DNA of 64,000 nucleotides from Chrysomallon squamiferum (taxonomy: Eukaryota; Animalia; Mollusca). The stretch spans positions 12,152,001 through 12,216,000 of the forward strand of contig CM022674.1 of assembly GCA_012295275.1 (NCBI GenBank), given 5' to 3'. Below are positions 4,388-41,700 of the stretch, piece after piece; within the stretch, counting starts at the first letter, position 1; every line of letters starts with the position of its first letter. The translations under genes and the position numbers were made by a program. Below the pieces are notes generated by a model that was not told the origin of the DNA, searched no databases, and saw nothing but the letters and a program-made list of their open reading frames with translations.

Positions 4388-4434
<47 letters not shown>

Positions 4435-4437
4435 TAC

Positions 4438-5324
4438 CTTCTCATTTTCTGTGAATACGTATGAGTTTCTCTGGAAAAATAAAAATATCACAATGTCAGA
4501 GAGAATTCAGATTATCAGCGACATACTATAAATAAATTTATACACAGATATAAACACGAACGAAAATTCACTCATCCATCCATCCATATATGTGTATGTC
4601 TGGGTCTGAATGTATATGTGTACTATCTATTCAATTATTTGTATATATCTGTTACTGACCTTCTTCTTTCTTCTGTTTCTGTCTGTTTCTTCCCTCAGTA
4701 GTGTCTGACATTACACTGTAAAAAGAATGAAGTAAAGATCTTCACAAATAAAAATGATAATATAAAATAAAATAAATAAACCTAAAAGAATTCCCGAAAT
4801 CGTAAATAAAGTTATTAATGTTGTTAAAAATATGATAAATGGTACAAAAAGATAATGAAACTCTAATGAAGAATATCGACTGAATTGAAATCTGCAAATA
4901 TACATAGAAGAATACATTATTTTTATGACTGTTGTTGTTGTTGTCGTCGTCGTTTTTTAAAGTAAAAATTACCTTCTTTCCTTCTGTTGCTGTGTACGTG
5001 TATGTGTACTTCTGAAAATGTCATCACATAATGTATGTATTTTTATCAAAGATTAATTATCATATTTTTCAAGTGATAAATAAGAAATATTTCTAAGGTT
5101 TTAATTACCTTCTTTCGGGCGGTTCTGATATATGCTTACGTTTACTTCTGAAAATGTTATCAAATAATATTAGTATTTTTTTTTTTAAATATTATTATTA
5201 TTTTTGGTTTTCACTTTATTAGTATTTTTTATTTTATATTTATTTTTTAATTGAAAAGCAAAAATATTTCTAAATTTTTTATTACGTTTTTTCTGGCTGT
5301 TCCGATATAAATTCATCTGTAGTT
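4438..5324 (-). CDS. Cluster of candidate micro-exons (5324-5286, 5147-5109, 5011-4973, 4704-4660, 4470-4438); parent gene and frame uncertain
   Basis: Five 33-45 nt purine-rich segments, all multiples of 3, each between a pyrimidine-rich ...ag acceptor and a gt(a/c)a donor on the minus strand. The three 39-nt ones share similar flanks. Confidence 0.45.
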
Positions 5325-8108
5325 CTCAAAATATTATCACATTGTGTTGGTATTTTTTAAGATTGATTATCATATTTTTCAGTACATATACTTTAACAAA
5401 AGGCTTTTCATGAAATTACATAAAAAATACTGTTCAGCTTTTCAATTCCTTTTTCTTTTTCTTTTTCATTCTTTTTTCTCGTTTTTTTTTTTCTTCATGA
5501 AGTATATATATGCATACATACAGACAGACAGACATAGTACACACAAACATAAACACACAAATTCAAACATCAATATAAACATTTTCAGTTTCTGTTTGAT
5601 TACGTATAAAAAAATACAGAAATGTTTTAATATGAAGTCAAAACTGCTATTTGGCGACCATATCTGCATTAGGCATTACTAAAGTTATATTACAACAACT
5701 ACTTCCATATAAAGGTACGTTCGTGATTTAGAGTAATTCAATATATTAGGCAAAAGTTAAATTATTTCTGAGTATAATATTTTGCGAAGAACTTGGAATT
5801 ATGCAAATTAGGATGGATACATACATTTTGTTCCACTAGGCATCCTATATACAAAACTATTTAATAATTGTTTTTATTAAACCATAAAATGCTAATTTAG
5901 TTCTCTCTTCCAGAAATGAAACATTTCTGTCATAAAAATTATCTGACCTGTAATTATCCATTTATACAACATAATCCGAATATATTCTAAGTTTTTGAAA
6001 AAGGTCAAACGTTAGTCATATGAAACATATTTCAAGAAGTATCTTTACCAAATGTGGAGGATCTGTTCAATAAAGTGTTCACTTTATAAAGACCTTACAT
6101 ATTTATATGAAACTCCCCTAACAAAATAAACTGACACATGATTTCATTCTGCTTTCTGTGGCCGTAGTAGCCGTTACCATTGCTAATTAGAGATATTTTT
6201 TGTATTTTATTTGATAAACTGACATTGTTTTATTTGTGATTGATATTTACTGCATTTACTTAATTTTGTTCATTATTATTACGTGAATTCGAATAAATAA
6301 TATGGGAAATGTTTGGCTGATGATCTGTTTCATCCATCTATGGCTTTATAAATACAGATTATCGAATAATACTTTAAAAAAATACAATAAAATAATAATA
6401 AAATAAATGTTATATACAAAAGAACAACGTAGAGGAATATCCTTTAAAAATGTGTAACATACTCGTCAAAAGATGCAAAATCGTCATCTTCTCCTGCCGT
6501 ATCTGTAATTACATCATCACTTTTTGCGTGCAAACACTTCGATAAAAAAAAGTTAATTTGTTGCTCACATTAAAAAATAATACTACTACTAATAAAATAA
6601 AACATAATAGTAAAAAAAGGATTACTCTTGCTGGACAGTCGATAATAATAAATCATTTAAATTCTACTTATGCACACGTTGTCGCTTGCACACTATTTTT
6701 CGATTGGAAAATGTTTTCGCGTAAAGGGAGTCTATAAATATTAATATTTTACCTAAAATAAATAAACGAATAAATAAATAAAATTTCTTAATGTTTTAAA
6801 TCATTAAATTTGAGGCAATTCACGACCCGTATAAGATTTTGTAATTTATAATTCTCCATTATCATCGCTATCATCATTATGATCATTAACATCTTTGATA
6901 TTATCAACATCATCATCATCGTCGTCGTCCATCATTATAACTGTTACTATCGTCTTTATCAGTATTATTAATTGTGTATATTTGTGGTTGTACGCATTTA
7001 TGTGACTTATAAAATAACATAAAATAATTAAATAAATACTGAAAAAACGAAAATAAAGTAACACTGTTTTTTTTTTTTAATAATTAACATTTATTTATTA
7101 ATTGAAAATTAACATTGAATTTTTTACTCAAAATATTAATTACATTTAATAAGGTATTGAAATTTTCTGCCAGAAAGATTCACGCAAATAATGTTTCCAG
7201 ACAGACGAAAATCCGTCACGATTTCCCTGAGAGTCTGATACGAGATTCATCATGGCATAGATTGGTTGTTTGTCAACAAAACTTTTTAAGCTGATAGTAA
7301 CAAAAGCTATAATAGGAGAAAAGTTAAATAGTCTCAGATATTTGATATGAATAAGCTGGTTACAGGAGATGGTAGAAATGACTAGTCTAGAATAATAAAC
7401 ATCATGTCCCAGAGGAGACATGGTAAATGTATTCGTATGAAAGACCCATGACTTGTTTGCCTATCTGAATTATCTTTCTTGTTTAATTTCAGAATTCGAT
7501 GTTTAAACATTCCACATGCTTTACACTAGCTGATTAATGCATTATGTTTCAGACGTGAAAAAGGTGTTTTAATAGCTATACCAACAATTAAACATTTAAC
7601 TTATAACTAAATAACTATTATCGAAGTTCCGTCCCAAAGAGAAATAGTGTTGGTCAGTCTCAGAACCCTGCATCATGTGAACCCTTTCTTCAACTTTTCC
7701 TTCGTTTTTTCCTTCTTTTCTTCGATCGATCATCGATTTCTTCTGAATATTCTTCCACAATTTCTTTGCTGAAAGTAGAATATTTTAACAAAATGCATAT
7801 AGATCTTATCAACAATACTACTTCTGTAATTACTATCATTACTACAACTACTACTATTACTGCTGCTGCTACTAATACCGTGACGTCTACTACTACTGCT
7901 GCTTCTTTTAACACTCCTATTGCTACTACTATTACTACTACTACTACTACTACTGTTACTACTTCTACAACTACTGCCACTGTTACTACCACTATTACTA
8001 TTGCTATTACTAGTGCTTTAGTATTACTATTACTATCACCATTAGCTCTTCTACTACTACTGCCACCACTACTACTACTAATATTACTATTGCTGCTACT
8101 ACTGTTAC

Positions 8109-8142
<34 letters not shown>

Positions 8143-9184
8143 GTTATTGTTGTTGTTGTTGTTTTGTGGTTTGCTCTTGTTAATTAAATTTTAATTTAAT
8201 TGTAATAATTTATTTAATTGTATATCATTAATATTCGATAATATAATTATACATCTACATATGCCTATCGATCTAGCTATCCATCTATCTCCCTACCTAC
8301 CTACCTACCTACCTACGTATCCATATATCTGTATGCGTGTGTGTATGTATATATTTATATATGTGTGTATGTGTATATATAAATGATTTGAGGATTTACT
8401 TACAACTGAAAGTGATCATCCATTGAATTACTGTCTGAGCTATACATAAAAAAGAAAATAATAATAATAATAACAACAGCAACAGCAAAAACAAACAACA
8501 ACAATAAAAATAATAATAACAGTAACAACAATAATAACAACAACAACAACAACAATAACAATAATAATAATTAAATGAGAGAGAGAGAGAGAGAAATAAT
8601 CTGAATTAATATTATCTATGATATTTTGCTGTCCAAAGATTTGGAAAAGTTGTATGCACAACCCTTTATTTCAATTTATTTTACTTCACCTATTTATTAA
8701 TTCACTTATTATTTTTATTATATTTCGATCACAATACTTTTAAAAATTGCATTATAATGTAATAAAGTGAAATCATATTTTTGTTATGTCACAAGGAGCC
8801 TTGTAATGGTATTTGTTTGTTACGTCACCTTGTACATATACAATAATTTAATCGATAATACTAAATAATAATAATAATAAACAATAATAAATAATAATAA
8901 AATAATAATTCAAAAATTAACAAACAAAATAAATATATAAATATATGTTATCTATGTACGTGTGTATGTATGTATGTGTGTGAATCTGTTTGGATCTGTG
9001 TATGGATGTATGTATGTATGTGTATGTGTATATATATACATATATATATATATGTGTGTGTGTATGTATAGATATATATATATATAAGTATGTATGTATA
9101 TATGTATCTCTGTGTATATTTACTTATGTGTTTTTGAATGTGTGTATGTGCATGTATTAATATTAAAAGTATTGTTATTATTAC

Positions 9185-12100
9185 CTTTTCGCCACAACTT
9201 TTCTGAAAATGTTATCACATAATATTAATCCGAATTGAGCTTATTTGTCATATTTTGGAATATAAATAGTTACTTCTGTGACAGCAAGGAAAAAAATTGT
9301 CGACGAACATTATACTGAATATGCACATATACATACATACATACATATGTTCATCATACGCCCATACACACAAACAAACACTGTACATACACAAATACGT
9401 TCTTAAATACATGCATACATACATCATTAATATTATTATTAAGATTTTATTTTTATTTTATTTTATTTTATTTTATTTTATTTTATTTTATTTTATTTTA
9501 ATTTATTTCGATACTGTTGTTCCTTCAACGTTTTCTGTATGAAAAAACAACAAAGAAGCAAAATCTCAAGAAACAAAAAAAATTTTAAAAATTAAATAAA
9601 TGATTAAGACCTCTCCAAAATCTAACAATAAAACCAGCTATCAGTGAGTAAGAAGAATACATTTTTGTTTACCTTTCATTCTTTACTTTCATTAAATTTG
9701 CTTCTTTACATCTGAAAATATTATCATATAATGTTAGTCTGAATAAAATTGTATCTCTCTTATATGTATAGATAGATAGATAGATAGATAGATAGATCTT
9801 AATTGTTTCTTTCTTTATTTTTAAATTTTATTTATTTCACATTTTCCGGTTGTCTCCTCTGAAAATAATGAAGTAATAGTTTTAAAGAATCACTAAATAC
9901 GATAATTTTCAATAATTTACAAGTATTTTACAAACTGATACTTGTGAGGAATAACTAATTATTAAATATATTTACTATACATACATATTTACAGACACAA
10001 ACACACACACACACACATACACACATAAGCGAGTGTATGTGTATGTATATTATAAATTATTTCGTTTATTTATTTATTTATTTATTTATATAATTAAATG
10101 TATTTATTTTCTTCTTTCTTTCTTTCAGTCTTTGTTGTTCTTTTTTTTTTTCTTATTTATTCAGGGAAAAGTAAGTAGAAGGTTAAATAGAAGTGCTTAC
10201 ATCTGATATAATACACAGCCGACACAGAGTGTAGCCAGAATGAAGACAGCAAGCGAAGACAGAGCAACATCAGACTCCGTCATTGCTTGAACATCTAAAG
10301 AGAAGAAATAATAAAAATAAGTCAGGAAATGAATAAAAACATCAATTAATTAGCGATTAAATAACTAAATAAATAAATGAGCTAGCGAAACAGAAGTTGG
10401 TATACATAATAATTTTAAACAAACTGAATGGAGCAATAAAACTGAAATCGTCATTACAAAAATGTATCATTATACAAACTAATATTTTAATGACTTTATC
10501 ATCATAAATACGTAGTCACTGTAATCGTTTTATCATTGTACAAGCTATTTTAATTTTTTAATGATTTTATAATTGTAAATTATTAATGACTTTGTTATTA
10601 TACGAATAGAACTGTTTTACTAACATCATCATCATGCTGATACCAACTAAATTGTTTTAGTGACGTCATCATTATATAAAATGAATTGTGTGACGTCATC
10701 ACTAAATAAACTGAACTGTATTAATGACGTCATCATTCGACAAACAGAGATGTCATAATGACATCATCATGATACAAATGGAACTGTGATTTTACCATTC
10801 ACAATTATAAAAGCTGAAATAGTAACAACTATAACGATAATAGTAATATTAGCACGTTTATTTTTATACCTATACAGTGGATAAAAGTGTCACAAACTTC
10901 TGTTCTGATCCTATTATTTTTCAAAACAACTCTTCTGATTCCCACTCCGCATGTGACGCTGCATCCGTGAATTAGCGCAGCATCTTGGTTCTCTACTATA
11001 CCTGCAATATCTTCGTCTGCTATATTAAAGTAATTTTAAATACACTAACCCTCATACATGTCAACACACAACGGTGTATTCACTAAGTACAATTTCTCTT
11101 TACGTTAATGATTGTAACTTGACTAAAAACTATTTCTGTTTACATTAAAAACTGTATCTTTACTAAGAAATATTCCTATTTAGATTAATAACTGCACCTT
11201 TACTAAGAAATATTTCTATGTACATTAATGACTTTCTTTATTAAGAATTATTACTCTTTACGTTAATAACATTACGTTTAATAAGAGTTATTACTCCTCA
11301 CATTAATAACAGTAACTTTACCAAAAATTATTACTTTACATTAATAAAAGTGTGTTTACTAAGAATTATTACTCTTTACATTAATAACGGTACGTTTAGT
11401 AAGAATTACTACTCTTTACTTTAGTAACAGTACGTTTAATAATAATTATTACTCTTTACTTTAATAACAGTACGTTTAATAAGAATTATAGCTCTTTACG
11501 TTAATGACATTACCTTTACAAAACACTATTACTCTTTACATTAACGATACTACGTTCATTAAGAATTTTTACTCTTTACATTAATGGTACTAAATTTAAT
11601 AAGAATTATTACTTTTGCATTAATAACAGTACCTTTACTAATATTTATTACTCTTTATATTAAAGACACTAAGTTTAATAAGAACTGTTGCTCTTTACAT
11701 CAATGATGTTACGATTACTAAACAGTATTCTTTTTAGACATTTACATTAATACGTATACTAAACATACTTTCACTTACATTAATGATGGAACGTTTGCTG
11801 AGAATTATTACTCTTTACAATAACACCAGTAAGGTCACTAAGAATTACTGCTCCGTGCATTAATAAAAGTTACCTTATTATAAAATATCCCTTTACAATA
11901 GTATGTTTGACAGAAATTTTTTTTTTTTAATAACATTAATAACACTACATTTACTAAGAATTACTATTATTTACACTAATATCGGAATCTGAATTATTCC
12001 TGTATCCAGTAATGGTCGTACGTTTACTAAGCATTATTATATATTCACATTAATGAAGGATACGTTTGTTAAAAATAGTTTCACTTCAATTAATGATGGA

Positions 12101-14017
12101 ATGTTTGCTAAGAATGATTGCGCTTTACTCTAATGTCAGTACGTTTGCTACGAATTATTCTTATTAGCATTAATGGGGTATTAAGAATTACTCCTGTTTG
12201 TATAAATGAAGTGACGTTTATTCATATTTAAATTACAGATGTATTAATACATAGTATTTTTGAATCTAAAACAGCGTGCTCTCTTCCTCTCTGTTGATGA
12301 GTACTTACGTTCATAATCGTAGTTTGTTTTATCAGAATCTCCTATGCAGAGTTTTAGTTCGGTTCCTGTCTGCGGTAATGTCTCACACGTTCGACTTTTG
12401 TACACAGAAGAGGACAACGGCGTGATTGACCACTTGCTCCACTGACCAACCTCTTTAAAAAAATAAAAATAAAAGAAAGAAAGAGGTAATAAACAAAGAA
12501 AGAAAGAAATATTATAATTAGTATTATTATTATTATTAATCACTAAGTCACTTATCCTTATCTCGGTTTCATAACGAATTAAAGTTTTTGGTAATCGGAA
12601 ACCAAATTTTATGACAGAAGTTTATTATAAAATTCTTAATGAAGTCGATGATTAATTATTAAAGTATATTATGACTCTTTTGAGCAGATAATATCAACAT
12701 TAACTGAAAACAAGAATCTTCAGATCCGCTTCTCTAATGCTATATTTTGAATCTAGTATTCATTTATATCATACATTATCCTATTATCTTATGCGCAGCC
12801 CATCTTTGCATAGAAAAATAAAATTATTGCATGCTCCTCATAATTATCCTTTATTAATTTCTGTTCATTCTGTTCGTTTCATAATTGTTAAGTAACTTTG
12901 TTGACTTACCAGCAAAACAGGTTAATTTATATTCAGTTATTTTATCGTCGATTTCTGCCATCAGTTTATCTATGCTCAAGTTTTGACATGCGTCAGACTC
13001 AGCTAAATCATCAGCAGCAAGTATGTAACAGTTTCTAAATAAATCAATCTTAGTGTCTCTGAAAACAAAAATACATACACAAGCAAAATCATAATAAAAA
13101 TGTGAGCTAATGTGATATTGATACTAAAATATTAAAACAAAAGAATACTGTTAAAACCGTGCATAATAATAAAATCGGCTAAATGTAAATACTGATAAAT
13201 TCAAACACAGATAAATCTGAACAGTCCAATGTAGACTCACAAATTTAAACATATAAAATATAAACGCTGATAAAATTAATCACTGAATCAAACACTTTAC
13301 ACATTGTCAGAAGCAGATGTCTGAGACTGTCTGATTCTGTCTGATTCTGTATCATGTATATGGATGCACACCCAAAGACTTACGAGCAGTACTGGCTTCT
13401 GAAGGTTTCAATAGACTGCCCTTTCGAAATAGAGCCTGACTGACCATGGGACAGAACAAAGGTTAAAGTGTCTGGAGTGTGACCAGTAAGTCTTCCACAT
13501 TGTGCTAACTTCTTATCATGAAACTCAACGCACGACTGCTGACCTTTGACCGCCAGCAAAAGGACACCGACTGAAGAATAAAAGAGAAAAACGACACAGT
13601 TGTTATTTCTGAGGTAATTTAATTTATAACTGAAATGTCTTTGTCCGATGTATAAATATTTATTTCCTGTACAGTAAACTATATACTTTGTTGATACACA
13701 CATACACACATATATATACACATGCATACCAACACACACATACACACAACACACATACACATACACACAACACACATTCACATACACATACACACACACA
13801 CACATACACACAACACACATTCACATACACACATATATACATAGATGTAACGGTAACATCGTCCTCCTTCGGAGTGCGGGCGAATGGGTGTCATACGTTC
13901 GAGTCTCGTCAGCGGCATCTAACGGGTTTGTGAGGTCGTGATTTGACTTTGTCCTCCTGCGTCACTGCGTTCCCGAATATTGTCTATGTGATGAATATTC
14001 AAAATCCTAAACTACAA

Positions 14018-14048
<31 letters not shown>

Positions 14049-14384
14049 TACATAGATACATACATACATGCATACATACATACATACATACGTACATACA
14101 TACATACATAAATATATCTACTTGCCAGTGCCAGTAAAAATAGATGCACGCAAAAATTACGAAAGAGAAAGAACGGCGTGCTTCGTGGAGGCGATGATTA
14201 CCCTCGGTTACTGAGCAACTTTTTTAGGGTTGTCTCGATGGGCGAACGGTAAAGTTGACCCACTTCTAATCAGACGTACATAATATTCAAATTCTAAAAA
14301 CACACACACACACACACGCATACATACATACATACATACATACATACATAGACATACAGACAAATAAACATAGACAACTCTGTG

Positions 14385-14421
<37 letters not shown>

Positions 14422-14642
14422 ACATACACAGACATATACATACGTTCGACAGACAGACATGCACTCGTATTTGAAAAATGGTGATCGTTTGATTAAGTTA
14501 AGCAGGATAAGTATGTCCAATAATCATTTAAGTGCTTAAAAAGTGTTTACTTATATCTACCAACACTTCCTGCTAACATAAATTTACGTTAATAATTATA
14601 TTTATACATACCGTTTAAAAGGAACAAAACAATCGCCTTCAT
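9185..14642 (-). CDS. Gene 2: single-module type I membrane protein; exons SP 14642-14612, A 13570-13384, B 13058-12910, C 12452-12309, D 11001-10870, TM 10294-10201, candidate tail micro-exons 9858-9841, 9711-9673, 9202-9185; 3' end unresolved
   Basis: Spliced frame is continuous: MKAIVLFLLNVGVLLLAVKG/QQSCVEFHDKKLAQC...QYCS/DTKIDLFRNCYILAADDLAESDACQNLSIDKLMAEIDDKITEYKLTCFA/EVGQWSKW...KLCIGDSDKTNYDYE/RIVENQDAALIHGCSVTCGVGIRRVVLKNNRIRTEVCDTFIHCI/DVQAMTESDVALSSLAVFILATLCVGCVLYQ. Exon B is 149 nt as in the other paralogs; tail exons are less certain. Confidence 0.85.
11080..12200. repeat. Degenerate 40-bp tandem minisatellite (roughly 28 units) in the gene 2 C-D intron
   Basis: Unit like aagaattattactctttacattaataacagtacgtttaat recurs at 11361, 11401, 11441, 11481, 11521, 11561 and 11601. 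Confidence 0.85.
13845..13985 (+). mobile_element. Possible tRNA-derived SINE head fragment
   Basis: GC-richer island within microsatellite containing a B-box-like GTTCGAGTC near 13897; family not recognised. Confidence 0.25.
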
Positions 14643-20130
<5,488 letters not shown>

Positions 20131-21847: not shown

Positions 21848-22260
21848 ATGCTGATGCAGACGTTAATTGTGTTTGTGTTAACAGGTATGTATTTAAATAA
21901 TACCTAATGGACGAGCACTTATTAATGTTTTATTTTTTCGCATATAAATGGCAGTAATATAGTCAAATAAATACTGTAATATCGTTTTCAAGGGTGGAAG
22001 GTCTTAGGACGCAGAAACCAGAGATAAAAACAAAGGCAAAGCAATAAAAAAATCATGTTCAAAACACTTTTAAAATACTTTAAAATTCTCAAATTTGATG
22101 AAATGGCCAGCTCCTCAAAAAACATAAGTTAAATAACATTAAATTATTTGAATATATATTTATATTTATTGTGGTTTTATTTCATAATATTTTTGTAGAA
22201 ACTGCTGTATGAGAAAACTATTATTATAATCTTCTTTTTTCATTATTTTCTTTCCTTTCC

Positions 22261-24112: not shown

Positions 24113-25627
24113 GTCTGTATGTATTTTGGAAGCTACGTAAATTTATGTTAAAGTATTTATGTTTTAGTTTTCTGAGCATAATAATGTTTGTGTATGAATC
24201 TATTTTTGTACTTCCGTGTAGAGCTCTTTTAATTTTAATTTTTATTTATATACAAATTTTTTACAGTTATTTACTTATCAGCAAAGCCAACTAATACTGA
24301 GATAATCTATTTTCGCCATCTTTCTTTGAACAAAAGGGTTAAATTCGTCATTATTTTGTTCACCAGCACGTCTGAAGCAGTTTTTGAATTGATCACAAAA
24401 TTGATTTTCTACAAAATTACAATACATCTAAGCACACGGAAGAACAAAATATAGATTCTTACACAAAGAAATGGTTTGTATGTTCGTCTGTACAGCTTCT
24501 GACTGTATGTATGTGTGTAAGTCTGTTCACATATACCTTCGTATTACATACTACTACATCATCCGATCTACTTCTATTAATGTATGTATCTACGAATGCA
24601 CGTACATCCTTATTAAACTATCTGTATATGTAAATATGTATGCATGTGTGTATGTATGTGTGTGTATGTGTATGTATGTATGCATGTATTTATGTATGTT
24701 GCTCTTTTGTACACATTTATGTAGGTATATGTTTCTATAAATGTGCATTTGCTATATATATGTTCTTTCTTCTTTTATTTGGAGCTGGTTTGTGCCTTAA
24801 TCTGTTGTTGTTGCTGTTGTTGTTGTTTGTTTGTTTTTGTTTTGTTTTTTACTTTTTATAGAAAAGCTATGATCAATTTATCATCAAACTGCATTAGACG
24901 TGCTGGTGAAGTTATAGAAAATGATGACGAATGTAAACGTTTTATCGGAGATAAAATCAAGAAAGATGTCGAAGACAAATTATCTGAATATAAATTGGCA
25001 TGCACTGCTGGTAAGTAAATAACTGTTACAGTTTATTATATAATTACATATTAAAATTAAATACCTTGATAATATAAAGCAAATGTTTCCCATCTATTCA
25101 TTTTTTTAATTTATACGTTCTTACAAATTTAAAATCAAGCTTCGGTTTGGACGAAAACAAAATTCTTTTAAGCACTGGATAGAACATTCTTATTGCATAA
25201 TATTGTCAGATAAATTTGATCATAAACCGTACATTTAACGCATTTCTTGTCCCTATTGCATTAAATTTGATCCATGTTTCTTTCAAATCAGTCTGGAAGC
25301 TTTAGTGGATGTATTTTCTATTAGTGATTTTGTTTTTCTTCTTTTCTTGACGTATTCTGACTTTCACCATTCGCATAGCTACTCGAACACATAACCGCCT
25401 TCACATCTTTTCTTTCTTTTTATTTTTCAAAGTTTATGGTGAATGGACTGAATGGACAGAACAACGTGGTGAGTGTAATAACACATGTGGTGTTGGTACG
25501 GCTGTTGTCTCGACAACTCGAACATGTAAGAAACTTCCACAGACGGGAATAAAACTAAAACTGTGCCTGGGAAATTCAAACGAAACAAAATATGAATCCT
25601 GTAACACAACAACACAATCTTGTAGAC
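21848..25627 (+). CDS. Gene 4 signal exon 21848-21884 and module 1: A 23271-23454, B 24862-25010, C 25433-25627
   Basis: EDCQKKYTEEEEKC...KYCT/KAMINLSSNC...KLACTA/VYGEWTEWTEQRGECNNTCGVG; intact. Confidence 0.9.
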
Positions 25628-27343
25628 GTAAGTAAAAATTAGCGAATATAGTGATACCTCGAGTTACGAGTGCCCTAACTTACGAGCAGTCGCTTGGTCG
25701 ATTTTTTGCTCTGAGTTGCGAGCAAAAATCCGAGTTACGGGCGAACTTCATCCCATATCTCACTCGTTTACTTCACGTGGTTACCTGGCCGTGGAAGCAT
25801 CTCTGTTGTGTTGTGTTCGCGTTTTTTGCAGTATTTTGCCAATTTCTTTTTTCTAACCATGGATCATAAGAAGGTGGGTGCACAGGACAGTGCTGAGAAG
25901 AAGAAGTGGATGATGTCCATTGAATTAAAAAATGAAATGATTGAAAAATATGAGTGGAGTGAGGTGTGCATGTAGTCGACTTGGGTAGGCAGCACGAGCC
26001 TAGTATCATACTGAAGCACAAGAAGTCGATTAAGACTATAAGTTCAGCTAAAGGCGTTACAATATTTTGTCTGTTCTCCAAGATAAATACACTTCACAAA
26101 AACAATTTATTTCTTTACATTCTCTTTTATTTTTTTATATAATATTTGTTATTTATAAATACATTTTTCTTATTTAAAAATATGTTGTGACGTTACAAAA
26201 AAATGGGGTGGTTTTGGAGGAGTGAGAATGTATTAATGGTATTACAGTTAATTTCAGTTAAGAAAGTTGATTTGATATACGAGCAAATTGAGTTACGAGC
26301 TTGGTCACGGAACTAATTAACCTCGTAAGTCAAGGTACCACTGTATTAGTTTGTCACAAATCATAGAATGTACAATAAAGCAGAGCAAATATACCTTCGT
26401 GATATGAGAACAAACGTAGAAAATGTTCGTTTTTGCCAAAAACAGTTAAAATACGATTTCACACATGCTGAACATGTAGAAAGCAATACTACCTATTCAT
26501 GTCGCTTTGTTACATAGACAGGAATATGGCAGAGTAAACGTATTATATAAAAAGTATAACATGCAGTGATTATTTGAAAGTTTATTGCACAGATTAAAGT
26601 ATCGTAATTATTTCAATAGGAATAATGGAATGCAAACGTAGTATACTTATACCAACATAAATAAGGCACTATAAACCTACCATAACAACTAACATTATAT
26701 TTCAGTCAAAAGTGAATGGTGCAATGCAATTTACACTTCGAAGTTAGACAAATGTATTAAAAGCACTGGCCACACAAAAGAATCAATGGACTTTATGCTC
26801 TCTCGAGGACAAACAGGGTCTATTCCGAAAGAAGAATCAGTTTTAACTTTCAGACAAACATTCTGCACGTAAATATATTTTTGGGTACTTAATACGTTTG
26901 TATGTCTGGATCTATCAGTATATGTAGGCATGCCTGCTTCTGCCTATGCAGTACGTATGTCTCTCTGTATGTGTGTGTGAATGTTTATGTATATACACAC
27001 GTACGTCTTTACCAACCTGTCAAGGTATGCTTGTATGTATATATGTTTTCTTGTAAGTATGTATATATGTTTTATTTATTAGTACTAATTGCTAAGTGCA
27101 TATAATTTCAGGTTGTCTATTATATTGCATAGAGAAGAGATATGTCAACGACAAATATATTAAATAAATTTGTGTTAATAATTATGAATCTGTCTTTATT
27201 ACTATTATTATTATTATTAGTTGTAGTAGTAGTAGTAGTGGTATTTATTTATTATTGATTTATTTATTTATATATGTATTTGTTTGTTTATTTCATTATT
27301 ATTTTTTTATTATATGTTATTTCTTCAGACCCGACGCTTCCTT

Positions 27344-27432
<89 letters not shown>

Positions 27433-30400
27433 TATCATATTCCCGTGGACTTCAAAGAAAACAGCGGAATCTGTGAGTCTGACATATTTTGGCCGCTTGA
27501 TGTAAAATTATCTTAAGCAAATATGCCGTTAATGACATAGATTCCACAACATAACAGTTGAGAAAAGTATCTTTACAAATGCAGCTGCCAAACTCATTAT
27601 AGCATGGTCAAAGTTTCAAGGTCCTCATTCGTGACCTTCGCTCGTTTGTTTTTCTTCAGACCCCACGTTTCTTATTTTTTGTCTGTATATACCAAATTCA
27701 CGCGGACGTGAAAGAAAATTGCGCAAGTTTAAAAACTGTCTTTAGATTATATTCATATGAAAATTATTACTTTAATAAGATTATCAGTAATTAGTATAAA
27801 TAAATGTTTCATATACATCCCAACTTCCTAAATTATCTAACAAAACCTTTGTTGTCATGTTTGTAGTCAAGCTAAGATCAGTTTATCATCAAAGTGTTTT
27901 CGGTATGCTGCTGATGCTATAGAAGCTAATAACAAATGTAATAATTTCATCGGAGATAAAATCAAGAAGGATGTCGAAAATAAATTATCTGAATATAAAC
28001 TGGCATGCTTTGCTGGTAAGTAAAATAAGTGTAAAACTTCCTAATGTAAATAAATATTAAAACTAAAATGTTTCTTTGAGAAGAAAATATACGATCAGAA
28101 ATGTTTCTTATGTATTGATTTGTATTGACGAGCAGCCGTTAAATATTAGATAATAAAATAGTAATGGAAAAAAAAGTTGAATCGAACTGTCTTAGAACCA
28201 TATATTTCACAGTATCGAAACAAACGAAATGAATACGAAATATAACTGTTTCCAAATTCGTTTTGAAGTTAAAATGTATTTGTTAGATGTTTCGAGTTCT
28301 CCTGTGATGTCTGATAGCATAATTACTTTTCCCAGGAGATAGCAAATGTTTCTCATTAGCGTCTGCCCCTCAGTGATTAGTACTAGTCAGCGTGTCACTG
28401 TGGGGAAACAAACAAATATGGTAACTCTGTTTACATTTGTGTCCGACCATGTGTTTCCTTCTTCGCACCATTTAAAGTTTCATTCTTTTTTTTTTCTGAC
28501 AGTTTATGGTGAATGGACTGAATGGACAGAACAACGTGGTGAATGTAATAACACATGTGGTTTTGGTACAGCTGTTGTCTCGACAACTCGAACATGCAAG
28601 AAACTTCCACAGACGCGAAGAATACTAAAACTATGCGTGGGAAATTCAAACAAAACAAAATATGAATCTTGTAACACAGAAACAGAATCTTGTAAACGTA
28701 AGTAATAATCAGCGAAGATTATTTAGCCACAAACCATAGAAACTAGAAGTAAAACTACCTACATCCTATAAAAAGGAATAACATGTAGAAAAAAGTGTTG
28801 TTTTTGTGTTGGAAACGTATATGTACTAATGCACATTCACATACCTATATTAAATAGAAATAAGGCAAAATAATTGATTAAATAAAGAGGTGTAAAACAT
28901 AAAAAACAATCCATCATTATTTCCACAGATTAAACTAGTGTAATTATGTTAACAGAAATAACGGAATCCAAAGGAAGCATTCATATAAAATAGCAATAAC
29001 AAACAATAAACCTAACCTAACTGTGTAAACAGCAACCAAATGTAATCGTACCTTTATTATGTTTCAGTTAAAATTGTGTCGTGTAATTCAATGTACGCTT
29101 CGAAATTAGACAAATGTATTAATAATATTGGCCATACAAAAGAATCAATTGCGTTTATTCTATCACGTGGAGAAAAAGGATCTATTCCAAAAGAAGAATC
29201 TGTTCTAAGTTTCAGACAGAAGTACTGCACGTAAGTTTATATCCGAGTACTTCAACTACATCCGTAGTTATGTATTTATTTGTGTTCTTATATGTTTATC
29301 TATCCTTGTATTTGTGCATGTTTGTTTTTATTTATGCAACCTTATGCAACCTTATAGTTATATCAGGTATTGAGTTAATTTATTTATATTGGTTTCTGTT
29401 TTCTTTTTCTGATTTTCTTTTAATTATTTTATTCTTTTTTTTTTTTTTTTTGGTGGGGGATTTCTTTGTTGTTGTTCGTTTTTTTTTTTTTTTTTTTTTT
29501 CTTTTTCTTTTTTTTTTCTTTTTCTTTTGTTTGTTTCTTTTTCTTTCTTTTCTTCTGAGTATAAGCTGTGTAGGAACGATTGTTTTTCTTACTTCTTTAA
29601 ACCTGTGTAATAAATTTTATAGAAAAGCTAAGATCAATTCATCATCAAACTGTTTTCGGTCGGCTGGTAATGATATAGAAAGTAATGACGAATGTAAACG
29701 TTTCATCGGAGATAAAATCAAGAAAGATGTTGAAAATAAATTATCTGAATATAAATTGGCATGCTTAGCTGGTAAGTAAATAAGTGTAAAACTTTCTGAT
29801 GTAAATAAATATTAGAATTAAAAGTCTCATTGAGATGAAAATATACGATCAAAAACGTTTCTTATCTATTGATTTTGTACCTAATTGACAATGCCATTCA
29901 AATGAACAGCCGATAAATATTTGATAATCACATAGTAATGGAAGAACAGACGATTAGAACAAAGTTGAATGGAACTGTCTTAGAACCATATTTTTCACAA
30001 TATCGAAAGATACGAAACGAATACGAAAGATAACTGTTTACAAGTCGTTTGGAAGTTAAAATGTACGTGTTAGACGTTTCGATTTTTTCTATGATGTCTG
30101 CTAGTGTAATTACGTTTCCCAGGATACACCAAACCGTTTCTCATTAGCATCTGCCCCTCAGTGATAAGTACTAGCAGGCGTGGGGAAACACACATGGTAA
30201 CTCTGTTTACATTTGTGTCCGATCATTTTCCTTCTTCGCTCCATTTAATGTTTCATTCCAGTGACGCAATGCGTTTTGCATAGTGTAGGATTTAGACTTG
30301 AACTTATAATAACTAAATATGTACGACGGATCCTTCTCAATAACAATGAACTGATTTTCATGCATGATAATTTCCACTACTAAAGGTAACTGAAACTAAA

Positions 30401-33284
30401 TGACATATTTTTCATCAAACATATATTTTTTATGCATTGTAAATGACTAGTTCATTAGATTCGATCTACTTTCCTTTTGATGTCTGTCCAGTCGCTTTTT
30501 CGTATGGGTTTTTGTGTATTAAGAAACAAACAAAAACAAAAACAACATCAACCTTCATGACAAAAACAAAAGAGTATTTTCGCAGTATCCTTTGCCATAT
30601 GTTCTAAGTTCATTTGGATTCCCGTTTCTACAATCATCACTTTTACAAACAATCAGTTTTGTTTTCTTCTGCCTTGACTTCGTTAGTAACGAATTTAGCT
30701 TTCATACAATATTTGATTTTCTCTTTTTTTTCTCTGAAAGTTTACGGTGAATGGACTGAATGGACAGAACACCACGGTAAGTGTAATAATACATGTGGAG
30801 CTGGTATCGCTGTTGTATCGACAAGTCGAACATGTAACAAACTTCCACAGACTGGAAGAAAATTAAAACTATGTGTGGGAAATTCAAACGAAACAAAATA
30901 TGAATCCTGTAACACAGAAACGGAATCTTGTAAATGTAAGTAATAATTAGCGAAGATTATTTAGCCACAAACCATAGAAACTAGAGCAAAACTACCTACA
31001 TCCTATAAAAAGGAATAACATGTAGAAAAAAGTGTTGTTATTGTGTTGGAAACGTATATGTACTAATGCACATTCACATACCTATATTAAATAGAAATAA
31101 GGCAAAATAACTGATTAAATAAAGAGGTGTAAAACATAGTAAACATTCCATCGTTATTTCCAGAGATTAAACTAGTGCAATTATGTTAACAGAAATAACG
31201 GAATCCAAAGGTAGCATTCATATAAAATAGCAATAACAAACAATAAACCTAACCTAACTGTGTAAACAGCAACCAAATGTAATCGTACCTTTATTATGTT
31301 TCAGTTAAAATTGTGTCGTGTAATGCAATGTACGCTACGAAATTAGACAAATGTATTAATAATACTGGCCATACAAAAGAATCAATTGCGTTTATTCTAT
31401 CACGTGGACAAAAAGGATCTATTCCAACAGAAGAATCTGTTTTAAGTTTCAGACAGAAGTACTGCACGTAAGTTTATATCCAAGTACTTCAACTACGTCC
31501 ATAGTAATGTATTCATTTTGTGTTCGTATATGTTTATATGTCCGTCTATTTATGTATGTTTATAAGTGTGCAAATATGTATATATTCATATATTTTGTAT
31601 CTTGGTATCTACGAAACTATATACGTCGTTATATGAGGTAGTGAGTGAGTTTATTTATATTGGTTTGTTTTCATCTTTTTTATTTTCCTTCTGTGTATAA
31701 GTCATGTATGAACCCTTTTTATTCTATGTTGTGAAAACCTGTATTATAATTTTTTTAGTAAAGATAAAATCAGTTTATCATCAAATTGTTTTCGGTCTGC
31801 TGCTGACGTTATAGAAGGTAATGACGAATGTAAACGTTTAATCGGAGATAAAATCAAGAAGGATGTCGGAAAAAATGTATCTGAATATAAACTTGCATGC
31901 TTTACAGGTAAGTAAATAAGTGTAACAATTTATTATGTAAATTAATATTTCAATTAAAACAGTTCGTTGAGAGGAAGTTAAACGATCACAAATGTTCTTT
32001 ACTGATTGATTGTGTACTTAGTTGATAAGACCGGGCAAACAACCGGTAAATATAATCATTTAAGAAAAAAATACTGCAACAGAGTAGAATCCAGCTGTAT
32101 TAGAATATTCGACAACAAACCGAATTCCAAAGAAAACTGTTTTCGGATTCCTTTCTAAGACAAAATGTACACAATGTAAAGAACAGTCACCAGCTTTGCT
32201 TTCTTACCAGATGTGATGGAACCAAATCTTCCTTGTTATATCACCACTTCGTGGGGATTTTGCAGTGTGGTCCATCTGTGTTATAGAAAAACGTTCTTGT
32301 CCATGACAGTAGTAAGACTGTCGCAGAATTGGTTAGTGACAGGTCAGTTTAAAGTGAAAGCTCACGCAAAAGATGTTTCTAGAGTTTTCGAGTGACCAGG
32401 TGAAGACTCGATATAAACACAGACACTACAAGATTTTCCATTCCTCACCCAGTGTCCTGGTATTTCAAGCTTATATCCTGATGTTAATGCAACAGTTCGC
32501 TTTTTGCTTCCTCGTCCTACCTCTACAGAGTACACTTTAACACATCCTCGGGGGTTCTTTCTGTGGTAGTCTTGCGTTTGTAGTGCCGCATTTTGACATA
32601 AAGGTATGAATGAATTTATTATATTAGAGTCATATAACCAATAAAACTCAACTTACGTTTTTTTGGAGTACCTTACCTTTTTCCAAAGTATACAGTGATA
32701 ACACATTAGTATAGGGTATAAACACTGATGCATTGGGGTCCAGTTTAATAAGCAATTATTTTAGCTTTTCCAGTAGGATTCACTCTACTTAAAAAAAATA
32801 TATAAAAAAAAAAATTACTTTTCTTCTCAGCAATTTCTATCTGTATAAAAATGATACATAACAAAAAAAAATAATAATATAATAAAATAAAATAAAGTTT
32901 ACCCCACTCTCCCCCAAAGTGAGCTTTTCAATGAGACGATTCATATTTTCCATTCAGCAAACAAAATGTATTCTTATAGGCACAGGATTAAATATCCTTA
33001 CTAAAACTATTGCTGTTCTACTGCACCAAACGTTTGTCGTTAAGCATATATTTTAAACATCTCATTAGAATTGATCTATGTTCCATCGAAGCCAGTATTT
33101 TCGCTTTTTATATGTAATTGCTATTAATAAATATGCTTCGATGTCTTCTTCATATTTTCTCAATGAGTCCTATCTTTAACCATTCGCTTAGCTACCTCGA
33201 AGTGTATTTTTAAATTTATTTTAGTTTTTTTATTATTTCTTTCTTTGATTTATGATTATTATTGTTGTTGCTATTGTTGTTGTT

Positions 33285-33359
<75 letters not shown>

Positions 33360-34769
33360 TTGATGGTTTTGTTTCTCCTTGGCTTCTTTAGTAAAGAATA
33401 GTTTCCATTCAACATCAGAAATAAATTATCTTATTTCATTTTTTTTCTCTCTTTTCTTTTTCTTCCAAGTTTATGGTGAATGGACTACATGGACAGAACA
33501 ACGTGGTGAGTGTAATAATACATGTGGTGTTGGCATCGCTGTTGTTACGACAACTCGAACATGCAAGAAACTTCCACAGACCGGAAGGAAACTACAACTA
33601 TGTGTGGGAAATTCACTCGAAACAGAATATGAATCCTGTAACACAACAACACAATCTTGTAAATGTAAGTAATAATTAGAGAACATTAGTTAGCCATAAA
33701 CCATAGAAAATAGAATAAAGCAGAGTAATTAAACCTTATGATACAAAGAGGAATCAAATCGTTATTGAAAGATACAGTAAAAATATAACGGGGTGGTGCA
33801 TGCTTAAGGTGCAGGAAGTGATATTATATAAACAAGAATAAGGCAAAGTAAATGTATTATATAAAGACAAATAATATGCAGCAAATGTTCCATCATTATT
33901 TCATACTTAATTCCATAGATTTATTACCATCTTTATGATAATAGGAATAAAGGAATGCAAACATTGCATTATTATAAAAACAACACAAATAAACCTACCA
34001 TAACTTTCTAAGCAAAATCCAGTCGTAAACGTATCATTACTATGTTTCAGTTAAAACTGACTGGTGTAATGCAATGTACCATTCGAACTCACTAAAATGT
34101 GTGAATGGTACAGGCCACACCATAAAAACAATTACCTTTATGGTATCTCGTGGCCAAAAAGGACATATACCGAAAGAAGAATCTATTGCAACGTTTAGAG
34201 AAAAGTACTGCACGTAAATATATTTCTGATTGTTACCTCCTATATGTATATATACATTTATTTATTTAAATATGCACTCTACGTTTTTATCAACCTATTA
34301 ATGTTTGGAGATATGTATGGATTCCTGTAAATATGTATGTGCGTAATAATGTCTTTATCTGTGTGCATCCGTATGTAGATCTCTGTGTATGAATGTAGAA
34401 AGTATGTGTGTGTGTGTGTGTGTGGGGTGCGCGCGTGCTAGACTTTCCGTGTCAAATCACCGAAAACATTCAGAATGTTAAACGACCGATTTTGTTGAAA
34501 ATTTATATTTAAGGTAATTTATCACTATAGATATTCAATTTTCCACTGTTAGCATGATCGGACAAGGGGTTTCTGAGATACGACGAAATTTGTATAATGG
34601 TCCAAAGCAAAGACAATTTTGGGCACTGGAGTCTCACCGACTACATCAATCCGAGTGACGAATTAATCGATGTCGAGTACGTTTGGTGACCATCCCTGAA
34701 TCGAAGGAAGATTTCATAGAAAACAAATGTTCATAATGATCTAACATAGGTGCACAGCCAAATCCCAAA

Positions 34770-35740: not shown

Positions 35741-38700
35741 CTTCATGTAAGATTGCATGTGTTAATGTATTTTGATTGAACTGTTTTCTTTTTGAGCACA
35801 TACCTGCTAGGAATTAAAAATTATTTTCTTTCGTGTAAACCTGTTCAGTAATTTTCAACGTGCTGCTGATGCTAAAGAAAACAATGACGAATGAAGTTGC
35901 TTCAACCTTATATGTTATATACGCATACATATATCTTCGTACGCACTTACGTCTTTATCAAACTATTAACGAGTCTAAGTTTGTTTTGTATGTATTGTTC
36001 TAACTATAAAAATATATAGTGATGTATTTTGTTACCGTGCATGTGTATGTATATATGTATGTATGTATGTAAGTATGTCTTTATCTATCTTGGTATTTAA
36101 GAAAATAATATATATATAGTTATGCATGTATCTTTTATATAAGTGTACATGCATTTGTTTATGTCTATATTGTTTATGCTAGGTATGAATCTATCTTTTT
36201 TCTCTCATACTTGTAATTTTTATAGAAATTCTAAGATCAGTTTAGTATCAAACTGTTTTCGAGCTGCTGGTGAGACTATAGAAAAAAACGAAGAATGCAA
36301 ACGTTTTGTCGGAGATAAAATCAAGAAAGATATCGAAAATAAATTATCTGAATATAAATTGGCATGCTTTGGTGGTAAGTAAATAATTGTGACAATTTAT
36401 TACATAAATAAACATTAACATTAATGTAGATCGTTGAGATCAAGTTAAATGATTACAAAACTGTGCAATATTTGAACCTGTTTATTATTTTGTATTTCGC
36501 TTCGAGGTCACAAACAAAAAAAATAATTATTATTTACTTTTGATTAGATTCGAAGCTATAAAAACAATTTTGCTTTTTTCCCAAACGGGACGATAAGGAG
36601 TATAAAATAAATTTATTTATGCGAATGCACAGCTGTCGTATTTAGCAAATGATTTTGTCATCAAACATATTTTTACGCATTTCGAGTCACTCGTTCATTA
36701 GTTTCGATCTATGTTCCTTTGAAATCCATTTTGTAGCGTTTTTTTATCTATTTTGAATTAATGACTTTGTTTCCACCTTTTTTCTTTTTCTTCTTTTTAA
36801 CTTCTTGTCTTCGTTAGTAAAACATTTTTCATTCAGCGTTAATAAAATATAATGTCTGTTTTTCTTTCTTATTTTCTTCAAAGTTTATGGTGAATGGACT
36901 GATTGGACAGAACAACGTGGTAAGTGTAATAATACATGTGGAATTGGTACAGCTTTTGTATCAACAACTCGAACATGTAAGATACTTCCAAAGACGAGAA
37001 GAACACTAAAACTGTGCGTGGGAAATTCAAACGAAACAAAAGACATGAATCCTGTAACACAGAAACAGAATCTTGTAAACGTAAGTAATAATCAAAGATT
37101 AGTTAGCTACATACCATAGAAAGTAGAATAAAGCAGAGTAAACGTATCTATGTCAAATAAGGAGGAATAACATGTAAAATAAATTTTGTTATTGAAAGAA
37201 ACAGTTAAATACAACATTCAGATATGCCGGTAGTGTAGGTAGCCTATTCAAGTCGCTTTGTTATATAAACATGAAAAAAGCAGAGTAAAGATATTGTGTA
37301 AAGAGGAAGAACATTGCATCGTTATTTGAAAGTTAATTCCAGAGATTAACATACGATCTTTACGATAACAGAAACAAACGTAGCATTATTATCCAAACAA
37401 CAACTCATATTAAATTATACAACAATTGTGTAAGCAACATCCAATTATAATCGTAAAATTATTATGTTTCAGTTAAAATTATATCGTGCTATGCACTGTA
37501 CGCTTCAAACGTAGCTAAATGTAATAATCTTACTGGCCACACCAACGAATCGATGGACTTTATGCTATCTCGTGGACAAACAGGGTCTATTCCTAAAGAA
37601 GAATCTGTTTTAACGTTCAGAGAAAAGTACTGCACGTAAGTATATTTCTGCATTCTTCCACCTTTCGTATACGAGGTGTTCATTCAGTTTTAAAGACTCA
37701 TCGAGTAATTATTTCCGTACATTCAAATAGATTAGAACCATTCAAAAGATCCTAGAATATTTGAATATCCCCTTCTAGCAACAAACCTACGAAAGGTGTC
37801 TTTATACAGGAGTCAGCATCGGAAGAACGTGGACCCTCCAGATAGAAAGCACGAATGGCTAAACTTGTAAATAAAAGATCTCAGCAGTTTACTGCACTGT
37901 GTTCTCGTTTCGTTCTTTCTCCATGTTGATATCTACGAAAATACGTACATAATTATATACCTAAATTTTTATATAACCGTGTTGTCTATTTCTCTCTCAC
38001 ATGTCCAAACTTGTATTGTCATTTTGTAGAAAAGCGAAGATCAATTTATCTTCAAACTGTTTTCGACATGCTGGTATGGCTATAGAAAATAATGACGAAT
38101 GTAAACATTTTATCGGAGATAAAATCAAGAAAGACGTCGAAAATAAAATATCTGAATATAAATTGGTATGCTTTGCTGGTAAGTAAATAACTAACTATTT
38201 ATTACATTAATTAAATATTAAATTTTAAATAGTTCATTGAGATGAAGTTATACGACAGCTAATGTTATTTACCTATTGATTTTAGTTGATTAGACATAAC
38301 AAAACCTAATTAACAGCCAACTAATATAAAATAATCACATAGTAGCTAAAGACAAGAATCGAACGATATTTTTCCACAATATCGGAATTAGGGATATGCA
38401 AACTAAAATCTACCGAAATTAATTCCTAAAAGAATTCCTTCGAAATCGTAATACTACCTCATTCGAAATTTCGAAATTTCTAATTTTCGTGTATTTTCAA
38501 ACATGAGTTGCCAATAATAAACTGTTCAGCATCAGCATATCAGCGATTAGTGCTAATCAGTGTGATCGAAACGAACATGATAAATGTGTTTACATTCTAG
38601 GACAAAGTCGAATAGAAATGGCTTAGAACCAGCACAGTTCCACAATGTAGAAAAAGTGCAATATTTGAAGCTTGTTTCCTGTTTCGCTTCGAACTCTTAA

Positions 38701-41700
38701 AATAAATTCTAACTGGAACCATAAGGAGCATACAGTAACATTATTTATGTACCTATTTGGCTTTTGGATATTCGTGAACATTTTAAATTCAAGATTTTTA
38801 TGGGACTATTTATACTTTCCTTTTAGCAAATAAAATTAATCGATTCAGGCACAGGATTGAAACTTTTTACAGTAAAACACTGGAGTTTCACTATATTGCC
38901 TTGACTTCATCAGTAAAGAATACAGTTTCTGCTCAGCTTGAAAATTTGTTTTCATTGTTATTATTATTCTTTTCTGCCTTCTTCTTAATATTTTATTTTT
39001 CTTCAAAGTTTATGGTGAATGGACTGAATGGACAAAACACCATGGTAAGTGTAATAACACATGTGGTGTTGGCACTGCTGTTGCATCGACAACTCGAACA
39101 TGTAAGAAACTTCCACAGACAGGCAGATTACTAAAGCTATGCTTGGGACATTCAAAGGAAACAGAATATGAATCCTGCAACACAGAAACAGGTTCTTGTA
39201 AATGTAAGTAATAATTGGCGAAGATTAGTTAGTCACATACCACACAGAGTAGTATAAAACATGAGAAAATGTAAAAAAGAATAGCATGTAGAAAACGTTT
39301 CACTATTAAAAGAAAGAGTAAAAATGCAAAGGTCACAACAGAAAGTAGAATAGAAAACAGTAATACGTATTCACATCACTATATTATATAGACAGTAATA
39401 TGGCAGAGTAAATGTATTATATAAAGAGGAATAACACTCATTGGTATTTGTAACCTAATTATGCATATTAAAATGCCGTCTTTATGGTAACAGGAATAAG
39501 ATAAGGCAGCCATAAAGTTATCATATACAAACAATAATACTCAGTAAGCCAGTCATACCTCTGTAAACAACAACCAGTGGTAATCGTATCTTTACTCTGT
39601 TTCAGTTAAAACTAATTTGTGCAATGCAATGTACGTTTCGAAATTAACCAAATGTATTAACGATGCTGGCCACACCAAAAGGACAATTGACTTTATGGTA
39701 TCTCGTGGCCAAGCAGGCTCTATTCCGGAAGGAGAATCTATTTTAACTTTCAGAAAGAAGTTCTGTACGTAAGTATATTCTCGGGAACTACAGCTACCGC
39801 GTGTGTATATCTGTGCTTTCTATTTATCTATCTTTCTATTTATCTATCTTTCTATTTATCTATCTATCTATCTATATGTATGTATGTATGTATGTATTTG
39901 TCTGTATGTGCATATGTCTGTACTTATGCATCTACGGAGGCACGAACTACTATAATATGAATATTTCTATCTATGATTGCACGAACGTCTTTATGAACCT
40001 ATTAATATATGTGTGTCGACATATCTGCATGTGCAAGTATGTATGTGCTTAGTAATATATTTATTTTGGTGCATGGATGTGTATCTCTCTATATGTGTGT
40101 ATCAGTGTATGTCTGTGTATACCTTTGTCTATATGTTGATATCTTAGTAAATATTTATATATAATTGAGCATTATAAACAGAGCAAGTTTTATTATTGTT
40201 ACTCTTTTTAAAATTTTGTTTTTGAGCTAATTCTGGGGAATGTAACTAAGGAGGAAAGTAGTAGTCGACCTTAAACAAGAGCAGACGACATGCTGGTATT
40301 ATTCTTCAGTGGGGACTGCCTTATTCACAGAAAATAGTTACATTAAAATATTACAATAATGTTATACTAAATAACTCATTTTATCTAGAATAACAGTAGC
40401 AAGCACGATGTCTGACAAAGACGTTTTTTACAACAGCTTGCTGTGATTGGCACGTTACTGTTTTTCTGACTGACTGATGGTGCTATTATTCTAGATAACG
40501 TGTCCAAGTTATGTAATGTAAGATTGTTTATAATGTTTATATGATGTGCAGTTCTATCAATTAATATGTGTAAACAATATCGAATACCAAACGATAGGCA
40601 CATTGCAATATGCAAATACACACTATTACTTACATGTTCCAGCACGAATAATATGCTACTGTTATTCTAGATAAAACGAGTTATTTAGTGTAACATTATT
40701 GTATTATTTTAATGTAACTATTTTCTGGGTATAAAGGCAGTCCCCACTGAAGAATAATACCAGGATGTCGTCTGCCTAGTTACATTCCCCAGAATTAGCT
40801 CAAAAACAAAAATAAAAAAAGTAACAGTAATAAAACTTTCTCTGTTTATAATGCAGAAGTATATATAAATATTTACTAAGATACCAACACAGAGACAAAG
40901 GTATACACAGACATACACATACACACTTGCATTAGCAGATATGTACACATACATATATTAATAGGTTTATAAAGGTCGTCAATCAACAAAATCAAACAAT
41001 TTACAATCCGATCTATCGAAAATACAGTAATCAATGTTAATATGCAATAAACATGCCAGAAGCTTCATAAACTATTTCGCAGCAAAGGAATTGCAATAGT
41101 TAAACTATTTAACCAACAAATATCTACTTAGATGTTTATGTAACCGATAAACATCAGCTTTAATAAAAACAAATGGAGACAGACAGCCGCATTGATGAAT
41201 AATTCAAGGATGTCGTTTGTCCTTTGTGTCTGTCGCAGACTGTAGTAGCTCAGTGGTTGCTAGAATCTGTACGTAATAATCTGCTCGCCATTAAGGTATG
41301 CATTTATTTGCATATTGTAAAGTACTTGTCGTTTTCTGTTTGACATTGTTTACACAGGTAATATTAAGTATTTGGTTCATATACTAAATTATAGCACTGC
41401 ACAATAATCAATATTCACATACATTATAAACCAATCTTAAACTAAATAACTCAGACACATAATCTAGAACAACATTAATAAATCATAAGTCCAGTCTCCC
41501 TAAATACTGCATTGTCATATATTAAATGCTGACATCATATACATAGTTGTTTCGTTATTATTTGTATTTTATAACTGTTGTTCATCCTTCATGTTTCTTA
41601 CAAGAATATGTGGTTTTAAATAAATATTAGATTAATTAAGCAGTCTAATATTAGAAAATATCGAAACAAACACATACTCAAATGAAATAAAAGTAGTTAA

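Follow-up and report, generated by a model that had tools for sequence, protein, structure and literature searches.

We analysed a 64,000-nucleotide (nt) stretch of the Chrysomallon squamiferum genome (contig CM022674.1 of assembly GCA_012295275.1, positions 12,152,001 to 12,216,000 of the forward strand; hereafter the window). It holds four clustered genes, here numbered 1 to 4, which share a six-cysteine domain encoded by two consecutive exons, A and B; in the repeating unit these are followed by a TSP1-like exon, C. The original prediction had placed an unrecognised domain at 29068 to 29771, and this interval runs exactly from the first base of exon A to the last base of exon B in the third module of gene 4. 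The parts of this module are as follows.

29068 to 29230, + strand: exon A, 163 nt with AG/GT borders; first half of the domain, with Cys 1-3, predicted helices at residues 5-20, 24-31 and 45-52, and the GxxGSIP loop; AlphaFold2 predicted local distance difference test (pLDDT) 85.6
29231 to 29622, + strand: phase-2 intron within the domain, 392 nt, T-rich
29623 to 29771, + strand: exon B, 149 nt with AG/GT borders; second half of the domain, with Cys 4-6 and a predicted helical hairpin at residues 2-20 and 22-48; AlphaFold2 pLDDT 79.5
30741 to 30935, + strand: exon C, TSP1-like repeat after the domain, 195 nt, phase 1-1, with WxxW and CxxTC motifs

Exon A of module 3 begins at 29068 right after an AG and exon B ends at 29771 right before a GT. 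AG/GT borders recur throughout gene 4, where the exon phases are 1-2 for A, 2-1 for B and 1-1 for C. Exon A is 163 nt long in all 16 internal copies of gene 4, exon B is 149 nt in 14 of 17, and exon C is 195 nt in 13 of 16. A and B therefore add up to 312 nt, or 104 codons, and the pair is frame-neutral. Module 3, spliced by script, contains six cysteines with the predicted spacing C-x10-C-x36-C-x10-C-x13-C-x22-C (10-36-10-13-22 below). The same spacing occurs in 14 of the 17 gene-4 modules and in genes 2 and 3, making 16 exact cases among 20 copies; module 13 has 10-36-10-12-22 and gene 1 has 10-36-10-13-24. Modules 7 and 12 of gene 4 carry a 1-nt frameshift within exon B, and six in-frame cysteines are present in 18 of the 20 copies.

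We located the repeated exons by tblastn and by hidden Markov model (HMM) scans of six frames, in which the three exon types recur in the order A-B-C. The window contains 20 copies of the domain, 17 in gene 4 and one each in genes 1, 2 and 3, as expected from the claim that all four genes carry it. An HMM built from the four first-module A exons only gave 20 six-frame matches at E<1e-3 (four being its own training sequences) and, as a chance control, 0 matches in each of 5 shuffled windows. Invariant positions are few: over 20 A exons only C5, C16, G34, G37 and C53, with S32, S38, I39, P40, E43 and F48 kept in at least 90%, and over 17 B exons C10, C24, Y43 and C47 (gene 1 and modules 7 and 12 left out). 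The conserved motif proposed earlier, LSxGxxGSIPxxES/TxxxFRxKYC, thus holds approximately, with strict invariance over the A exons confined to the five positions named.

AlphaFold2 was run on alignments of the separate halves, and each half is predicted to be helical, in line with the original prediction. Half A has the higher predicted template modelling score (pTM 0.59, against 0.43 for half B). Cys1 and Cys2, and likewise Cys3 and Cys4, lie 11 apart on predicted helices, so that they probably pair across helices; the domain would hold three disulfides. The C-terminal end had been described as amphipathic, and this is borne out to a moderate degree and no further (moment at 100 degrees 0.15 over B22-48 and 0.30 over B31-47). 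The charged residues of this last helix are strongly conserved across gene-4 copies.

The domain had also been put forward as unassignable, with a loose resemblance to DUF19. Library searches were run with half domains of 49-64 residues, and fold searches with such short helical models have little power. Neither half found a credible match in Pfam, PDB sequences, Atlas or 1.84 billion protein representatives, searches that carry no positive control for this animal group. No Pfam family was reached by more than one member among the 20 A and 17 B copies, and the profile search returned no cysteine-bearing relative. The resemblance to DUF19 (PF01579), a family of extracellular, cysteine-rich invertebrate domains of about 130-155 residues with 12 conserved cysteines, is not supported beyond that general character: its HMM matched none of the 20 A and none of the 17 B halves at E<=10, and 18 of 20 copies here have six cysteines over 104 residues, against 12.

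We compared the cysteine pattern with three further all-helical families. Insect odorant-binding proteins are six-cysteine helical proteins with C2-x3-C3 and C5-x8-C6, spacings that do not occur in 10-36-10-13-22. The non-specific lipid-transfer protein (nsLTP)/prolamin fold has eight cysteines with CC and CxC, whereas the domain here has six, none adjacent or in CxC, and a smallest spacing of 10. Plant nsLTP and CRASP are all-helical disulfide proteins, and the nested pair of barley lipid-transfer protein is spaced 9-13-22 (PMC4596865, S5 legend), near the 10-13-22 of Cys3-6 here, which we take as a lead in geometry only. The snail (Achatina) CRASP in the same source has ten cysteines with spacings 9-6-28 and 11-8-10 (PMC4596865), unlike the six cysteines of our domain.

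Exon C is, by its motifs, a divergent TSP1 repeat. It has WxxW, CxxS/TCG, RxC and six cysteines, with WxxW in 16 of 16 gene-4 copies and CxxTC in 15 of 16; the gene 2 copy lacks the CxxTCG segment. Against Pfam TSP_1 it scored E 0.03 and 14.9 bits, under the curated cut-off of 21.6 bits, and in the PDB it drew weak thrombospondin-repeat (TSR) matches at E 0.01 and 0.024 (chains of BAI1 vasculostatin-120 and thrombospondin-1). BAI1-type TSP1 surface proteins resemble the genes here in exon C (WxxW, CxxTC, the weak TSR matches) and in type I membrane layout. This likeness concerns the neighbouring exon only; A+B is without counterpart in the searches run.

The carrier genes and their parts are listed below.

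1 to 2553, - strand: gene 1; signal exon 2553-2529, A 1431-1233, B 504-350, TSP1 from 102; runs off the window start
9837 to 14642, - strand: gene 2; signal exon 14642-14612, A 13570-13384, B 13058-12910, shortened TSP1 12452-12309, half-TSP1 11019-10870, transmembrane (TM) exon 10294-10201; tail exons uncertain
15543 to 20130, + strand: gene 3, 334-residue model; signal exon 15543-15564, A 16313-16508, B 16970-17118, TSP1 17711-17905, half-TSP1 18342-18497, TM exon 18825-18921, tail exons 19540-19572 and from 19974
21848 to 63821, + strand: gene 4; signal-peptide exon 21848-21884, followed by 17 A+B units with 16 TSP1 exons; runs past the window end
23271, 26706, 29068, 31305, 34051, 37473, 39606, 44154, 46477, 48321, 50482, 52251, 53940, 56007, 58404, 61035 and 63025, + strand: starts of the gene-4 A exons
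37038, 42329, 46010, 52880 and 59823: 1-2 nt indels breaking five gene-4 exons, three of them at A-runs

All four genes open with a short exon for the signal peptide, separate from exon A, and the domain directly follows the signal peptide, which makes the domain N-terminal and extracellular. The gene 3 model is an open frame via canonical splice sites in the order signal, A+B, TSP1, half-TSP1, TM helix, basic micro-exon and a tail with SDYLLV, and its 19-residue hydropathy peaks at 3.45 at residue 253. The gene 2 model has the same exon order and an open frame (peak 2.47 at residue 230). Judged by hydropathy only, both models combine an N-terminal signal peptide with one TM helix, and we predict genes 2 and 3 to encode single-pass type I membrane proteins with the six-cysteine domain membrane-distal. 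The earlier comparison with secreted domains is accordingly right as to the extracellular location, while these two carriers are predicted membrane proteins, not simply secreted. In gene 4, A+B units alternate with TSP1 exons at about 169 residues per cassette, and only the first A exon bears the end of the signal peptide.

The gene 3 tail as modelled (19974-20130, + strand) contains the ITIM-like (immunoreceptor tyrosine-based inhibitory motif) SDYLLV, and a GTGAG donor directly after it could alter the tail. SDYLLV fits a wider ITIM consensus. With S at -2 it falls outside the consensus I/L/VxYxxI/L/V (PMC11507803) and fits its YxxI/L/V core. A similar stretch, SNYL, is present near 9278 (- strand), within a candidate tail exon of gene 2. 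The gene 2 TSP1 exon (12309-12452, - strand) is 144 nt long, has lost the CxxTCG segment and keeps just two cysteines. On the 3' side of the gene 2 TM exon (3480-9860, - strand) we read by eye two sets of AG..GT micro-exons of 18-39 nt, several of phase 2-2; the two sets close with related last exons (near 7770 and 3525) and are possibly alternative cytoplasmic tails.

The domain is transcribed in at least four copies other than module 3. In RNA run X1, A exons carry four of the eight pieces listed, the other four being low-depth intronic pieces. Three of the four end exactly on both splice sites (31305-31467, 34051-34213 and 39606-39768) and the fourth ends within 2 bases; they differ from the window by 1, 4, 1 and 1 letters and continue into letters that the neighbouring introns do not match. 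A 395-letter X1 contig has 33 letters before exon A5 and 199 after it, compatible with the end of a C exon in front and, behind, exon B and the beginning of the following C exon, the joints themselves not being displayed. The upstream letters (33 at A5, 119 at A7) are compatible with the preceding C exon. A 2-nt deletion at 37038 is seen in both X1 and X2, at 88% likeness, so that it may stem from paralogous copies.

We estimated selection on the gene-4 copies as pairwise Nei-Gojobori ratios of nonsynonymous to synonymous divergence (dN/dS), using 16 copies of A (module 1 dropped), 14 of B (modules 7, 12 and 13 dropped) and 13 of C (three frameshifted copies dropped). The ratio is 0.45 for A (95% confidence interval 0.29-0.65), 0.43 for B (0.24-0.67) and 0.34 for C (0.21-0.54), intervals that are approximate because copy pairs are not independent. 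The copies are under purifying selection. Synonymous divergence (dS) is 0.50, 0.48 and 0.36 for A, B and C, and intron divergence is 0.52. At the protein level A and B (64% and 67% identity among copies) are more divergent than TSP1 (79%), and the first-module A exons are 30-34% identical to that of gene 3. Placed on the predicted elements, variation in helix 1 (dN/dS 0.56) and in the Cys4-Cys5 stretch, B10-24 (0.67), exceeds that in the GxxGSIP loop (0.32) and the last helix (0.22). Nearest neighbours vary by exon type (A3-A4 96%, B1-B9 96%, C7-C13 94%), and at three positions the X1 contig on A4 has the letter usual in other modules, though it may come from an unseen copy. Both observations fit mosaic evolution.

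We conclude that the window encodes a real, conserved, transcribed extracellular domain without an assigned family, in clustered putative receptor genes; the receptor family is probably lineage-restricted. As to function, we give somewhat better than an even chance to a helical recognition domain that is held together by disulfides and sits at the outer end of type I membrane proteins with TSP1 repeats. A+B would fold as one helical unit, forming the outermost recognition module held out on TSP1 repeats. It would bind a ligand on another cell or microbe, probably via the variable first helix and the Cys4-Cys5 hairpin, while the GxxGSIP loop and the last helix may serve as scaffold. Signalling would pass through short tails, of which that of gene 3 has the tyrosine motif. 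Gene 4 may gain avidity or breadth by repeating the phase 1-1 cassette of domain and TSP1 at least 17 times, its copies being mixed by unequal crossing-over or gene conversion.

Several results weigh against this account. The structure models and fold comparisons cover the two half domains separately. The diversifying selection expected of an arms race is not seen, as dN/dS exceeds 1 nowhere but in a four-residue linker (1.04), which argues against a strong arms race. The RNA evidence comes from other modules, with module 3 not among the pieces listed and the A-B and C-A joints not displayed. In this assembly five gene-4 exons (C5, B7, C8, B12 and C15) carry frameshifts of 1-2 nt, the gene 4 terminus, with or without a TM helix, lies beyond the window, and SDYLLV occurs in one gene and in one modelled last exon with an alternative donor.

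Two alternatives, compatible with each other, concern what the domain is and what it does. It could belong, as a remote member invisible to half-domain searches, to a cysteine-rich helical fold already described, be it DUF19-like or that of some other family of secreted helical proteins of invertebrates. The small size of the halves used in searching and folding, together with the barley-like spacing of Cys3-6, leaves room for this; however, no Pfam family recurs among the copies, the profile search gave no cysteine-bearing relative, and the cysteine count and the CC/CxC, Cx3C and CRASP patterns disagree, and we place such kinship on the unlikely side. Alternatively, these may be adhesion or matrix-anchoring proteins in which the helical unit is structural or homophilic, with gene 4 encoding an extended rod or scaffold and not a diversified sensor. 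TSP1 repeats are common in adhesion proteins, and both the purifying selection throughout and the conserved charges of the last helix agree with such a role. The domain nevertheless diverges faster than the TSP1 unit, its first-module A exons are far from that of gene 3, and the gene 3 tail bears a tyrosine motif; we regard this role as unlikely.

A further alternative concerns gene 4 as an array. Instead of one long polyprotein, it could supply phase 1-1 cassettes that are skipped or chosen by alternative splicing, or the array could be partly decayed. In its favour, including or skipping any A+B+C cassette, or any C exon, leaves the reading frame intact, five exons are frameshifted and stray B-like fragments lie in the introns. 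The low dN/dS across copies speaks against it, however, as do breaks of 1-2 nt, three at A-runs, as assembly errors would give, and RNA letters upstream of A5 and A7 that are compatible with the preceding C exon. We hold it quite improbable. A gamete recognition role of the family is suggested by analogy with sea-urchin EBR1, whose species-specific region has tandem CUB/TSP1 repeats (PMC13672419), likewise a long array of a two-domain cassette including TSP1. The EBR1 repeats are 97-100% identical (PMC13672419), against 64-79% at the protein level here, and EBR1 differs further in its partner domain (CUB, a beta fold) and its ADAMTS-like N-terminus as described in the same source; the genes here have no CUB or ADAMTS part, and such a role appears very improbable.

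The recognition reading can also be taken further, to an undescribed animal recognition-receptor family built on a new six-cysteine helical fold. In it, short paralogues would signal via tyrosine-motif tails, and a giant paralogue would show at least 17 distinct copies set apart by TSP1 units. Gene conversion or cassette splicing would reshuffle these copies, and the system would serve to establish self/non-self or cell-cell identity. We think this decidedly unlikely as a whole.

By analogy, and without claiming membership, the family may work like clustered invertebrate surface-receptor families, namely PTC2 and fester/FcoR, and EBR1 by architecture. The ectodomain of fester/FcoR is of the sushi/EGF type and differs from the six-cysteine domain. 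In Botryllus, fester/FcoR are clustered membrane proteins with tail tyrosine motifs, diversified by recombination (PMC11507803). Biomphalaria PTC2/GRC comprises clustered single-pass transmembrane genes with hyper-polymorphism and a resistance phenotype (PMC7494358). We see a likeness, without claiming homology, in the clustering of lineage-restricted single-pass genes, in ectodomains without known domains and in low paralogue identity; PTC2 proteins have no known domains in that account, whereas the genes here have TSP1 (PMC7494358). Gene arrays without known similarity are also described in squid (PMC9068888).

When clustered membrane genes repeat an extracellular domain that has no name, that domain is a prime candidate for lineage-specific recognition, be it in immunity, in adhesion or between gametes. 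An automatic pipeline would probably tag these genes by the weak TSP1 signal or as uncharacterised and overlook the helical part. With their fixed exon borders, the 20 natural variants establish a new domain family and, if the likely recognition role is true, would offer a way into how cells or microbes are distinguished in this lineage.

The window is AT-rich (GC 23-37%), with introns rich in microsatellites. Genes 2 and 3 lie head to head (14642 / 15543), their start codons 900 nt apart. The palindrome TGACGTCA, which we take to be of the cAMP response element (CRE) type, precedes by 20-70 nt the start codon of gene 1 (at 2573), gene 3 (at 15514) and gene 4 (at 21780); these are 3 of 8 such sites in the window. 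The B-like fragments in gene-4 introns are degenerate and lie at 24279-24427 (- strand) and 35811-35891 (+ strand), one being inverted. Another gene-4 intron contains a high-copy interspersed repeat (25670-26350) whose open reading frame had no match in a Pfam search; DNA-run depth there exceeds 60,000 in one bin. A 57-nt minisatellite (60038-61021) lies in the intron that precedes exon A16.
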